DNA of 64,000 bases from Escherichia coli (lineage in GTDB: Bacteria > Pseudomonadota > Gammaproteobacteria > Enterobacterales > Enterobacteriaceae): NCBI RefSeq assembly GCF_036507355.1, contig NZ_AP027877.1. The stretch is one strand, 5' to 3'. Every line of letters starts with the position of its first letter. The stretch's first letter is position 1. Made by a program: the position numbers. Below, piece by piece: positions 40,201 through 43,200 of this stretch.

Positions 40201-43200
40201 GTAAAAAAGTCGGGCAAATTCTTGAAGAGCCGCTGCTGATCAACACCAGCTTAAGCAAAGAACAGCGTCGGGAAAAAGCCCTGTCGATGATGGCGAAAGT
40301 CGGCCTGAAAACCGAGCACTATGACCGCTATCCGCATATGTTCTCCGGCGGACAACGTCAGCGTATCGCTATTGCCCGTGGTCTGATGCTCGACCCGGAC
40401 GTGGTGATTGCCGATGAACCGGTCTCCGCGCTGGACGTCTCGGTGCGTGCACAGGTGCTCAACCTGATGATGGATTTGCAGCAGGAACTGGGGCTTTCTT
40501 ATGTCTTCATCTCCCACGACCTGTCGGTGGTGGAGCACATTGCTGATGAAGTGATGGTGATGTACCTGGGCCGCTGCGTGGAGAAGGGAACGAAAGACCA
40601 AATCTTCAATAACCCGCGCCATCCGTACACTCAGGCGCTACTTTCCGCGACGCCGCGCCTGAATCCGGACGATCGCCGCGAGCGCATCAAACTCACCGGT
40701 GAACTGCCAAGCCCGCTGAATCCACCGCCGGGCTGCGCGTTTAATGCCCGCTGTCGTCGGCGCTTCGGCCCCTGCACCCAGTTGCAGCCGCAGCTAAAAG
40801 ACTACGGCGGTCAACTGGTAGCTTGTTTTGCTGTTGATCAGGATGAAAATCCGCAGCGTTAACTCACAAAACCGGGGCCATGCGCTCCGGTTTACTCAAT
40901 CAGCTTCAACAGTGGCGACAAGCATAGCAAAATGCCGTAAAGCAGAATCAGCCAGGCTTTAAATCCGCGAAGTTTTTCCAGTTGTGCGACTTTATAGATC
41001 AGGAAAAACGGAATGAGGCACGACACAATGCCATATAACGGGCTTCCCAACTGAAAGAACACCAGCACCGATACACGAAACGAAACCCAAATCGTCAACG
41101 TAATGACGATAAAAGCGCAGATCGCCAGAGTCAGCATGCGTGAGTTAATTTTCTTGGTATCAATAATTCGGCTTAACAGATTGAGAATAATGCCTTTAAT
41201 GGCCTCGTGGAAACCGAGATAAATGCCAAAGAATGCGGTCAGTACGGCAAAGATATTCAGCACCGTAGAGGTGATATGAATGATATGCCCAGGGATCACC
41301 TGCGCGGCCAGTGCCAGTGCCGAGATATTTTGTTCAAAGGCAGAAACGGCTTCTTCGTGGCTAATTGAGAAGGTAAACGAAAAGGCAAAAAACAGTATCA
41401 CCGCGATGAGCGTGATATAACTAATTCGGTGGGTACGCAGCGCGAGCCGGGTTGCCAGTACTTTATCCGCTTCCCGTTTACGATAGGCAATATTCATTGG
41501 GTTAAGTACCTGAATAAATACTGCAGAAAAGAAGCAAAATGGAATGGTAAGCAGGACATCGCGAAAAAAGACGGAGGCTTGCGGGAAGGCGGTTATATTG
41601 GCGAAATTCCAGTGCGGGATCATCGCAAAACCGAACACGACAATAATCCCTACTTTGACCACCACCATTGGCCCGGAAATCTTAAACAGTAATCGTTCAC
41701 CACCAGACGCAATCGCTACCAGTACGGCGAAAATAGCGACTTTATAAAGTAGAGATTGTGAAAGATCGGCATCGGTTAAACCGAAGGTTTTCAGGTACGA
41801 GGCGCTGTCGAAAACCACGGAGAGAGAGTAGATAAAAATCCCGTGGATAATCATCAAAAAGTAGATAACCCCGAGGAAAATTCCCCAGTTCTTCCCCAGG
41901 TAATGACTGATAATATCGGTGTAGTCATTACAGGAATCGCTTTCAGAAAGAGTTTTTAAATAAATGTCCTGCACTACCCAGGTGGCAGGATAAGCAATGA
42001 TCGCTGCGGTAATAAATACCCAAATTCCCTTCAAGCCAATTTGTACTGGCATCAGCACGGTTCCGGCACCAATCGCCATGCCTATGCATAATAAAACCCA
42101 GCCGAAGTCGTAGCGTGTAAACGGCAATTTCTGATCGTGTTTCGGTAGTGTGTTGTGCTGCATAAAGTCCTGTCCAGAAAGAAGTCGGCCTCGCAAAAAT
42201 GAATAAACCCAGTTTCTCTTGCGCAACAGGTGGAGAAGTCGAATACGCAGTATGTAAAAAATGAGGCAACAGATTCACTGGGGAGGTCGCGAGGAGGCGC
42301 AATTCTACAAAATTGCGCATTTCACTACCAGTCTGGAGTCAGCCCGGATATGAACTGCAACTATTGCAAATTAAGAAATTAAGCTGGAAGGCATCACGCA
42401 ATGAGGAAGATTGCCGGGTGCTGACAGTAAAAAGCAATCGTAAAATTAGCGGCAAGCCGGAAGGGTTCCGGTGAGGCGCAATGTTGCGGGGGCTTAATCC
42501 CTGGTGGCATTGGTTGCTGGAGAGAGAAAACCCCCGCACGTTGCAGGTATGCACCTGACAACACCACGGGGGCTAATCTTGAACCTAGACCACTCAAGAA
42601 TAGCCGCGAAACGTTGTCATTACAACACAGGCGGCTATATGACGCTCGCAGAACTGGGCATGGCCTTCTGGCATGATTTAGCGGCTCCGGTCATTGCTGG
42701 CATTCTTGCCAGTATGATCGTGAACTGGCTGAACAAGCGGAAGTAACGTGTCATGCGGGCGTCAGGCTGCCCTTTTTACAAAACCGCGATGCGCAGGCCG
42801 TTCAGCGCCAGCGCGTGGCCGATAACTTTCCCGGCAGCGATGCCTATTACAACTATGTGCTGACCCTGTTTGGACAAGGCTGGGATCAACACCGTTTCCG
42901 CTTCTCGACAAAAGGTGAGTTATTACCTGACTGGGGCCAGGAATGCGCAAATTCACACTAAACATATTCACGCTTTCCCTCGGTCTGGCCGTCATGCCGA
43001 TGGTCGAGGCAGCACCAACCGCTCAGCAACAGTTGCTGGAGCAAGTTCGGTTAGGCGAAGCGACCCATCGTGAAGACCTGGTACAGCAGTCGTTGTATCG
43101 GCTGGAACTTATTGATCCGAATAACCCGGACGTCGTTGCCGCCCGTTTCCGTTCTTTGTTACGTCAGGGCGATATTGATGGCGCGCAAAAACAGCTCGAT

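Follow-up and report, generated by a model that had tools for sequence, protein, structure and literature searches.

The ldrD/rdlD locus beside yhjV

The window, meaning the whole stretch of 64,000 nucleotides of Escherichia coli DNA analyzed here, carries the chromosomal type I toxin-antitoxin locus ldrD/rdlD (LDR-D), which is already well known in this species. The gene order is dppF-yhjV-LDR-D-(bcs), and the left part of the locus contains the following features.

40892-42163, minus strand: yhjV, the intact left neighbor (ORF list, alignment to K-12 yhjV and annotation)
42227-42452, no strand: spacer between yhjV and LDR, outside the LDR repeat and without similarity to LDR-A/B/C
42441-42446, plus strand: TAAAAT, candidate -10 hexamer of ldrD, by direct reading
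42453-42771, plus strand: truncated LDR-D repeat unit (yhjV-proximal copy); corresponds to the ldrD transcription unit without its last 59 nt
42481-42558, plus strand: upstream ORF of 25 codons, candidate leader ORF (ORF list)
42590-42525, minus strand: rdlD, antisense antitoxin RNA of 66 nt (Rfam RF01813)
42625-42597, minus strand: promoter-like motif of rdlD, TTGTAA-N17-TATTCT, with one occurrence in the window
42630-42636, plus strand: Shine-Dalgarno (SD) region of ldrD, GGCGGCT, by direct reading; predicted to pair with 42765-42771
42639-42746, plus strand: ldrD coding sequence, 35 aa plus stop (TAA at 42744-42746)

The segment 42000-42771, which includes the LDR unit, is 98.4% identical to K-12, whereas the unit itself (42453-42771) is about 81% identical to K-12 LDR-A/B/C. 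Also, the unit lies beside yhjV at the site that is bounded by bcsG on the other side, the bcsG side being deleted here. The assignment to LDR-D made in an earlier note on this DNA is thus confirmed. The span given there for the module, 42227-42746, does enclose ldrD and rdlD, but its first part is the spacer, and LDR homology is bounded by 42453 and 42771; the start at 42227 was chosen because the maximal yhjV ORF extends to 42226.

The ldrD peptide is matched by Pfam PF13940 (Ldr_toxin) over positions 1-35 of 35 with 93.2 bits (cut-off, 27), and a search of the NCBIfam models with the same 35-aa peptide gave no match. Compared with the solved structure of K-12 LdrD (PDB code: 5LBJ), 34 of 35 residues are identical, the difference being F3L, and Leu3 is the residue found in LdrA/B/C. 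The ORF is intact and is the same as the allele annotated in many genomes (WP_001295224.1). By direct reading, the peptide carries P17-x3-G21, W30 and a terminal KRK, and in the signature described for the family, a hydrophobic helix with PxxxG is followed by a conserved Trp, and the C-terminus is charged (PMC7472228). This places the predicted product in the Ldr toxin family of the Fst/Ldr superfamily, in agreement with the 35-aa Ldr toxin ORF that had been proposed. The K-12 LdrD protein is toxic on overexpression (PMC4147584, PMC8309996).

On the opposite strand, Rfam RF01813 matches rdlD at full length (66/66 model positions, 89.2 bits vs a gathering score of 50), and in the alignment both its start and its length agree with those annotated for K-12 rdlD. 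The RNA folds with -29.5 kcal/mol (z = -4.4) into a predicted single-stranded 5' tail, a long hairpin and a U tail, and the terminator scan lists a terminator-like site for it at 42547-42533. The motif TTGTAA-N17-TATTCT, whose -10 hexamer stops 6 nt short of the RdlD 5' end, occurs in none of 100 shuffles and is invariant or nearly so across the LDR alignment. It scores 8/12 against the sigma-70 consensus and hence falls below the threshold of the generic promoter scan; it would act as a weak, sigma-70-like promoter driving the 66-nt RNA from the minus strand. The match, the position, the promoter-like motif and the hairpin followed by a U tail together identify 42590-42525, at the level of sequence, as the RdlD antitoxin RNA. 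Both the reverse-strand motif and the hairpin-terminated antisense transcript of about 65 nt reported earlier are therefore present.

The segment of the 5' UTR that lies 49-114 nt before the ldrD start codon is a perfect complement of RdlD, which is thus antisense to the ldr 5' UTR and overlaps neither the SD nor the ldrD AUG (42639). In the literature, RdlD is described as blocking toxin translation indirectly, in a hok/sok-like manner (PMC4147584, PMC8309996, PMC8594479, PMC2887945), and the regulatory mechanism of the pair is still called unknown (PMC8309996). A leader-ORF hypothesis has been published for ldr (PMC4147584), with the name 'ldrX'. The upstream ORF at 42481-42558 is a candidate for such a leader: it has a Shine-Dalgarno-like sequence (GGTGAGG), it ends within the RdlD-complementary region, and its ATG is kept in 13 of 14 LDR units, being ACG in C. 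sedlakii. Regarding the toxin promoter, TAAAAT aligns with TAGAAT/TAGTAT of the other LDR units, about 7 nt 5' of the onset of LDR conservation, and might serve as the -10 element; the consensus promoter scan of the window listed no ldrD promoter and missed this hexamer.

The deletion junction between LDR-D and bcsZ

To the right of ldrD, the locus is interrupted and continues with remnants of the bcs genes.

42766-42771, no strand: deletion junction, GCTGCC microhomology of the LDR-D 3' UTR and bcsZ (three-way alignments with K-12 and Combat11I9)
42772-42961, plus strand: 3' remnant of bcsZ, its last ~64 codons, with no start codon
42943-46415, plus strand: bcsC pseudogene, split into ORFs of 237 and 923 aa by a 1-nt deletion near 43631

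Relative to K-12, 10,610 bp are missing, comprising bcsG, bcsF, bcsE, bcsR, bcsQ, bcsA, bcsB and most of bcsZ. Window position 42771 corresponds to K-12 3699955 and position 42772 to K-12 3689344; homology to the LDR side reaches 42771, and that to the bcsZ side begins at 42760-42766. The junction is located 19-25 nt 3' of the ldrD stop codon, in keeping with the few tens of base pairs estimated previously, and LDR homology runs right up to it. However, the breakpoint is inside the repeat and neither at its edge nor beyond it, since homology among the K-12 LDR units continues for 59 nt past this point. A full LDR-D unit (~378 nt) ends in a conserved intrinsic terminator; the window unit stops short of it, and the native ldrD terminator (11-bp stem), which is found in K-12, is absent from the window scan. 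The description of the module as retained consequently holds for the ORF, the 5' UTR, rdlD and the rdlD promoter motif, but not for the terminator and 59 nt of conserved 3' UTR.

The two breakpoint sequences share GCTGCC, 6 exact bases in a stretch with 10/12 matching, and a microhomology of at least 6 bp has a probability of 0.0019 in 200,000 simulated deletions. At the bcsZ breakpoint, whose sequence is the same in 9 other genomes, blast finds no LDR homology beyond GCTGCC, and direct reading of the junction reveals no IS or scar. The join is seamless over a short shared sequence, with neither a long repeat nor a mobile element. Judged by its sequence, the deletion is a single microhomology-mediated illegitimate join and not a product of LDR-LDR or IS-mediated recombination. 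In such an event, GCTGCC in the conserved LDR-D 3' UTR would have been joined to GCTGCC near the 3' end of bcsZ, for example by replication slippage or end-joining-like repair, and the same step would have taken the terminal 59 nt of that LDR unit, together with the ldrD terminator.

The question of whether the LDR repeat was involved in the rearrangement has a divided answer. The repeat supplied one breakpoint, but it was not a substrate of homologous recombination for the bcs deletion because the other breakpoint, in bcsZ, is without LDR homology and was joined through a 6-bp microhomology. The closest relatives have three LDR-D copies in tandem, and in one of them, strain Combat11I9, the ldrD copies recur every 483 bp. 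The window unit shows 1 mismatch in 545 nt to copy 1, compared with 96.5% identity to copy 3 and 94.4% to copy 2; by these comparisons, the copy kept is the yhjV-proximal one (copy 1). If the ancestor had the same three-copy array, the true loss may be about 11.6 kb. Three tandem copies could recombine, and the left breakpoint does fall within an LDR unit, in an invariant element, which would be in line with a rearrangement driven by the LDR copies themselves, through homologous recombination or unequal crossing-over. Against this, the bcsZ breakpoint has just 6 exact bases (10/12) in common with LDR, no LDR copy exists on the bcs side beyond the array in K-12 or Combat11I9, and exchange between copies alters the copy number of the array but cannot remove bcsG to bcsZ. 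As a cause of the bcs deletion, recombination between LDR copies is refuted by the junction sequence and is considered extremely unlikely. A more limited role is conceivable: copies 1 and 3 are identical across the last ~115 nt before the breakpoint, which is compatible with a collapse of the array before or after the bcs deletion, and LDR may have taken part in such a collapse.

An adjacent deletion by IS1 or a similar element has a precedent in strain Res13-Lact-PEA14-20 (NZ_CP062871), where an independent deletion of nearly equal extent is accompanied by IS1. In the window, however, neither IS sequence nor the remnant of an inverted repeat nor a target duplication is present at 42760-42780, and the join is seamless with microhomology. 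Moreover, IS-adjacent deletions leave the IS behind, whereas the single IS of the window is an IS4 located 18 kb from the junction. An IS-mediated origin is rejected on the junction sequence, and its probability is close to negligible.

The exact junction was not found by megablast in 5,426 complete E. coli genomes, nor by exact-pattern scans of GTDB representative genomes and JGI metagenomes; the allele therefore rests on one assembly. This uniqueness among all the collections searched would be expected of an artefact of assembly or sequencing, or of an engineered deletion, with the bcs operon intact in the real genome. Nevertheless, assemblers collapse long repeats and not 6-bp matches, and an engineered deletion is at odds with the absence of an FRT or loxP-type scar. 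Natural bcs loss is also not unusual, bcsA being absent from 89 of the 5,426 complete genomes (~1.6%). In addition, the independent bcsC frameshift, which would have come after the deletion, fits decay after pathway loss. An artificial junction is accordingly held to be very unlikely. Exact protein look-ups gave no record of either bcsC fragment, and PdeK proved too common to point to a source. A Shigella-like reductive genome was rejected as the source, as bcsZ and bcsC are the sole disrupted genes among those of K-12 in the window and there is a single IS. With the deletion and the bcsC frameshift, the cellulose pathway is dead, and the microhomology-mediated bcs deletion is an ordinary, strain-specific event.

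Predicted fold and silencing of the clipped ldrD mRNA

Two further features lie at the end of the retained repeat.

42755-42771, plus strand: remaining portion of the conserved 3'-UTR element (GCGGGCGTCAGGCTGCC); its predicted pairing partners are the ldrD SD, the UG of the AUG and codons 2-4
42757-42777, plus strand: weak hairpin created by the junction, GGGCG-N6-TGCCC plus T5 (terminator scan)

In the predicted fold, the ldrD SD is paired with 42765-42771, and the UG of the AUG plus the codons after it with 42755-42764. This pairing between the 3' UTR and the initiation region is predicted in the minimum free energy structures of the four K-12 LDR mRNAs and in the consensus of 14 units (RNAalifold), and the anti-SD element is conserved from Escherichia to Citrobacter. 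Across the alignment, 97.6% of cells are paired vs 30-51% when the element is slid, and 37/500 and 25/500 shuffles reach the observed value. With a single compensatory pair and shuffle controls that are not decisive, a proof of the long-range structure by covariation was rejected. In all variants of the window mRNA, the SD is predicted to be paired with P 0.95-0.99 and the AUG with P 0.62-0.66, like in the ancestral mRNA; when the entire 3' UTR is removed in silico, AUG pairing falls to P 0.10.

The hairpin created by the junction is one of 3 terminator-like sites in the scan of the window, where 1.2 +/- 1.2 are expected. Its energy is -7.5 kcal/mol (z = -1.2); the native terminator removed by the deletion has -22.9 kcal/mol (z = -4.6). 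Being no better than chance, the junction hairpin was rejected as a new terminator and is probably ineffective, albeit terminator-like. Transcripts of ldrD would then stop inefficiently at this hairpin or read through into bcsZ'/bcsC.

Given an intact RdlD and a 3'-UTR segment, predicted to mask the SD and the start codon, that is kept exactly as far as the junction, silencing of the toxin most likely persists, and the model suggests a regulated, if altered, toxin-antitoxin pair. The module could instead be a remnant, in which an ldrD mRNA without its terminator and its 5'-3' clamp is unstable or misfolded and gives no toxin, which would leave rdlD beside a toxin gene that is functionally dead, or, on the contrary, the toxin is leakier. 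The deletion of a strong terminator (-22.9 kcal/mol) speaks for such a remnant, as does the loss of 3' arms for which pairing is predicted with columns 24-29 of the alignment, at the 5' end, and with columns 166-176. Also, the ldrD mRNA is said, in the title of a 2002 report, to be unusually stable, and 3' hairpins usually contribute to the stability of an mRNA. Conversely, the ORF is unchanged from the common allele, the promoter-proximal region has one mismatch to the relatives, and the predicted masking of the SD and AUG is not altered; for the leakier variant, the evident viability of the strain argues against strong derepression. A remnant, in either form, is thus possible but rather unlikely. 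As a whole, an LDR-D locus clipped by a microhomology deletion, with the toxin most likely still silenced, is regarded as a highly probable explanation of the region.

LDR homology ends at 42771, exactly where the predicted anti-Shine-Dalgarno arm has its outer edge. Perhaps this position reflects a survival filter, by which deletions that reach into LDR-D from the bcs side would be viable only if they spare the silencing element or else remove the toxin gene; this is an improbable, speculative proposal. If it were true, the toxin-antitoxin locus would have shaped which bcs deletions could be fixed, the natural 3'-truncation would define the minimal silencing element of ldr mRNAs, and the clipped allele would mimic a hok-like 3'-processed form.

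For the system itself the locus is of little importance, ldrD/rdlD being a standard example of a chromosomal type I pair and about 1.6% of complete E. coli genomes having lost bcs. Annotation would label the ldrD of the window 'intact' despite the loss of its terminator and of part of a strongly conserved 3' UTR. Moreover, a natural clipped allele combined with the predicted anti-SD element in the 3' UTR offers a concrete truncation series for studying RdlD/ldrD regulation.

Comparison with related loci and with hok/sok

The closest described counterpart is LDR-D of K-12 (ldrD b4453/rdlD b4454; Kawano et al. 2002), which shares with the window the chromosomal site beside yhjV and the rdlD promoter motif. 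Unlike K-12, the window unit is devoid of the last 59 nt and the intrinsic terminator, and its downstream neighbor is no longer bcsG. The RdlD RNAs differ at 2 positions, both in the 5' tail, and because the antitoxin is cis-encoded the window mRNA bears the matching changes. The LDR-A/B/C units (ldrABC/rdlABC, at 27 min in K-12) have the same architecture, with the 5' UTR, the RdlD region, the SD and the 3'-UTR element invariant or nearly so; however, they differ in nucleotide identity (~81%), in a divergent ORF and in their locus.

Tandem LDR-D arrays, such as that of Combat11I9, are found in most E. coli, the inter-unit spacer being present in 3,070 of 5,426 complete genomes (57%); the window, in contrast, has one clipped copy and no inter-unit spacer. 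Strain Res13-Lact-PEA14-20 independently lost bcsG to bcsZ and kept LDR-D copy 1 and bcsC. There, an IS1 in the LDR-D inter-unit spacer is joined to K-12 3689251 in bcsZ, so that the right breakpoint is 93 bp from that of the window. In contrast with the window, this strain has IS1 at the junction, keeps the LDR-D terminator and has bcsC annotated as intact.

Finally, hok/sok (of plasmid R1 and the chromosomal hok loci) resembles ldrD/rdlD, according to the literature, in its long 5' UTR and in an antisense RNA located off the toxin start. Further likenesses would be a leader ORF, as proposed for ldr, and the pairing predicted between the 3' end of the mRNA and regions upstream. As a difference, neither 3' processing nor leader coupling is known for ldr (PMC8309996). 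Two sub-threshold Rfam matches were not counted as evidence: the sok model on the ldrD 5' UTR, weak at 27 bits and far below its gathering score of 59, and CRISPR-DR33 in the window at 19 bits. Despite these likenesses, ldrD/rdlD is not a member of hok/sok, its toxin belonging to the Ldr/Fst family and not to Hok.

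Setting and composition of the LDR-D locus

The window, part of an E. coli chromosome, is collinear with K-12 MG1655 3.669-3.739 Mb read in reverse complement (~98-99% identity), and a comparison with the K-12 gene set gives bcsZ and bcsC as the only genes disrupted.

Features around LDR-D, in gene order (window coordinates)
plus strand: dppF, first in the gene order around LDR-D
40892-42163, minus strand: yhjV, between dppF and the LDR-D locus
42590-42525, minus strand: rdlD, antitoxin RNA gene
42625-42597, minus strand: promoter-like motif TTGTAA-N17-TATTCT
42639-42746, plus strand: ldrD ORF, 35 codons
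42766-42771: junction microhomology GCTGCC
bcsZ 3' stub, between the LDR-D locus and bcsC
42943-46415, plus strand: bcsC, downstream of the bcsZ stub, split by a frameshift

The earlier note had identified an LDR-D unit beside a bcs deletion, and profile, structure-model, motif and synteny tests all place the locus in the Ldr/Rdl family, specifically LDR-D, a system that is itself already known. The proposed 35-residue toxin ORF is real: its peptide scores 93.2 bits against Pfam Ldr_toxin (cut-off 27) and is identical to the solved K-12 LdrD (5LBJ) at 34 of 35 positions, the sole difference being F3L, where Leu3 matches the residue of LdrA/B/C. Ldr peptides are toxic when overexpressed (PMC4147584; PMC8594479).

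Also, the hairpin-terminated antisense transcript of ~65 nt described from the sequence corresponds to the only rdl copy found by an Rfam scan of the window, which fits the rdlD model over its full length (66/66 positions, 89.2 bits against a gathering score of 50) and whose 5' end is, via alignment, the annotated K-12 rdlD start, both in agreement with known Rdl RNAs. This 66-nt RNA is predicted to fold (-29.5 kcal/mol, z = -4.4) into a long hairpin that is preceded by a single-stranded 5' tail and followed by a U tail. The reverse-strand motif TTGTAA-N17-TATTCT is likewise present and unique in the window (0/100 shuffles), its -10 hexamer ending 6 nt ahead of the RdlD 5' end; because it matches the sigma-70 consensus at only 8 of 12 positions, it is missing from a generic promoter scan. 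Rdl RNAs, which are cis-antisense to the ldr 5' UTR, leave both the SD and the start codon uncovered when they repress translation (PMC4147584; PMC8594479).

The interval first assigned to the module, 42227-42746, holds in part. Similarity to K-12 LDR-A/B/C (~81%) spans 42453-42771 and reaches the junction, and 42227-42452 is the yhjV-LDR spacer, outside the repeat. In K-12, LDR-D/LDR-ABC homology extends 59 nt past the equivalent of 42771; this 3' end, absent from the window, includes a strong intrinsic terminator (an 11-bp stem and T run in K-12; -22.9 kcal/mol, z = -4.6, computed on the copy-1 sequence of strain Combat11I9). As an LDR unit the locus is therefore incomplete in one feature, the terminator-bearing 3' end.

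Elsewhere in the window, the lpf1 operon (long polar fimbriae, lpfA1-E; 26330-32233, 5.9 kb), which K-12 lacks, separates yhjX from eptB; it is a somewhat divergent allele, as it reaches no more than 98.8% identity to any of 5,426 complete E. coli genomes. An IS4 (1,426 bp, 60808-62233), flanked by a 12-bp target duplication, is inserted at the stop codon of yhjB, towards treF; in 12 complete E. coli genomes this site is occupied as well. Beside tRNA-Pro (proK), a ~108-bp segment (34258-34365) aligns twice to K-12 and adjoins an Rfam naRNA4 (REP-type) match at 34370-34451, the double alignment probably being a REP-element copy-number difference.

The bcs deletion and its junction

On the left of the deletion, window 42000-42771 corresponds to K-12 3700726-3699955; on the right, window 42760-43299 corresponds to K-12 3689356-3688817. 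The K-12 sequence missing amounts to 10,610 bp, comprising bcsG, bcsF, bcsE, bcsR, bcsQ, bcsA, bcsB and most of bcsZ, whose last ~64 codons remain. The breakpoint lies 19-25 nt past the ldrD stop codon, within the few tens of bp originally estimated, and is placed inside the LDR unit, not at its edge.

At the junction, GCTGCC is present in both parental sequences, with 10 of 12 bases matching around it. K-12 shares the bcsZ breakpoint sequence with Combat11I9 and eight further genomes, which shows that the microhomology is not peculiar to K-12, and at least 6 bp of microhomology occurred at a frequency of 0.0019 in 200,000 simulated deletions of the region. No IS end, scar or longer repeat was found at the junction, either in the window sequence or in its alignment to K-12. 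The question whether the LDR repeat was involved in the rearrangement thus receives a largely negative answer, only these six bases being shared. From the sequences compared, we conclude that the deletion was a microhomology-mediated illegitimate join, for which the LDR gave one endpoint and played no role as a recombination repeat.

Loss of bcsA is found in 89 of the 5,426 complete E. coli genomes, and the window's junction in none of them, nor in GTDB representative genomes or JGI metagenomes; the deletion is ordinary, microhomology-mediated and apparently private. E. coli Res13-Lact-PEA14-20 (NZ_CP062871) has independently lost almost the same stretch, between the LDR-D inter-unit spacer and the 3' end of bcsZ (locus L002, 3640-4660). 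There, copy 1 is complete; an IS1 in the spacer that follows it abuts bcsZ 93 bp away from the right breakpoint of the window's deletion, and bcsC is retained. The two genomes show independent bcs losses with near-identical extents. In the window, a 1-nt deletion near 43631 divides bcsC into ORFs of 237 aa and 923 aa, which fits decay of the gene following a genuine loss of the cellulose pathway.

Most E. coli carry LDR-D as a tandem array, the single copy of K-12 being the minority state: the array's inter-unit spacer is found in 3,070 of the 5,426 complete genomes, in a median number of two (three copies). The genomes closest on the left flank (99.6-99.9%) have three tandem copies with a 483-bp period, as in Combat11I9 (locus L042, 13350-14800). 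The ancestor therefore probably carried several copies, and the true loss may be ~11.6 kb. The window copy shows 1 mismatch in 545 nt to the yhjV-proximal copy of such arrays, being 96.5% identical to copy 3 and 94.4% to copy 2. Copies 1 and 3 are identical across the last ~115 nt before the breakpoint, so a separate array collapse through LDR-LDR recombination may also have taken place; for the bcs loss itself, the microhomology-mediated join is the reading that we retain.

The left flank (40000-42771) is 99.6-99.9% identical to Combat11I9-like strains, and the right flank (42772-47000, bcsC-pdeK) at most 99.0% to any complete genome, which suggests mosaic ancestry or a faster divergence of the bcsC pseudogene.

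Predicted structure of the ldrD mRNA and comparison with hok/sok

For the ldr system, a mechanism resembling that of hok/sok and involving a leader ORF (ldrX) has been put forward, unproven (PMC4147584; PMC8594479), and a 2021 paper still describes how ldr/Rdl works as unknown (PMC8309996). In an alignment (A2) of 14 LDR units from K-12 (A-D), E. whittamii, Escherichia sp. E1V33, E. coli E69, Pseudocitrobacter vendiensis and Citrobacter sedlakii, the ldr 3' UTR is conserved more than the toxin ORF. Within it, the element CGGGCGTCAGGCTGCCGTAATGGCAAT-TGCGCC (A2 columns 312-345; kept in the window as 42755-42771, its 3' part being deleted) hardly varies across Escherichia, Citrobacter and Pseudocitrobacter. 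MFE folds of each K-12 ldr mRNA and the RNAalifold consensus predict that the element, CGGGCGTCAGGCTGCC-GTAATGGCAAT-TGCGCC, pairs with four upstream segments.

Predicted pairing segments
Segment 1: UG of the start codon and the codons after it
Segment 2: the ldrD SD, GGCGGCT
Segment 3: GTTGTCATTAC, just upstream of the SD
Segment 4: GGCGCA at the 5' end, adjoined by a conserved 25-codon ORF starting at 42481

No description of a 3'-UTR element predicted to mask the SD and start was found in the Ldr/Rdl literature searched. The predicted pairs are paired in 97.6% of alignment cells, against 30-51% with the partners slid. Since there is only one compensatory change and the covariation measures are equalled by 25-37 of 500 shuffles, the long-range structure is a conserved prediction, unproven.

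The junction falls directly past the predicted anti-SD arm. This arm and the anti-start arm (together 42755-42771) are retained, and the predicted arms for the upstream segment and the 5' end are deleted together with the terminator. Window transcripts were folded ending at the junction, at the junction hairpin, or 100-300 nt into the bcsZ remnant and bcsC. In every variant the SD is paired (P = 0.95-0.99), and AUG pairing (0.62-0.66) equals that of the ancestral mRNA, dropping to 0.10 upon in silico removal of the whole 3' UTR. The junction creates a hairpin, GGGCG-N6-TGCCC followed by T5 (-7.5 kcal/mol, z = -1.2), which is no better than chance; read-through into the bcsZ remnant and bcsC would therefore be the more likely fate. 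On the reading that we favour, the toxin would stay silenced and RdlD would remain functional, and the changed 3' end of the ldrD mRNA would probably make the transcript longer and possibly reduce its stability. That the breakpoint lies at the edge of the predicted silencing element through selection on viable deletion endpoints seems improbable to us. This clipped LDR-D is a naturally truncated allele on which ldr regulation could be tested.

Finally, hokA/sokA (16386-16541) is uninterrupted in the window (Rfam sok, 99 bits), the K-12 copy being split by IS150, and is a second type I toxin-antitoxin locus in the window, possibly an intact one. The Rfam sok model also gives a sub-threshold match on the ldrD 5' UTR (42488-42641, plus strand; 27 bits, E = 1e-3, gathering score 59), which echoes the likeness of Ldr/Rdl to Hok/Sok in RNA organisation (PMC8594479). 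According to the literature and the predicted folds, LDR-D may work like hok/sok, yet it is no member of that system; its toxin family differs.
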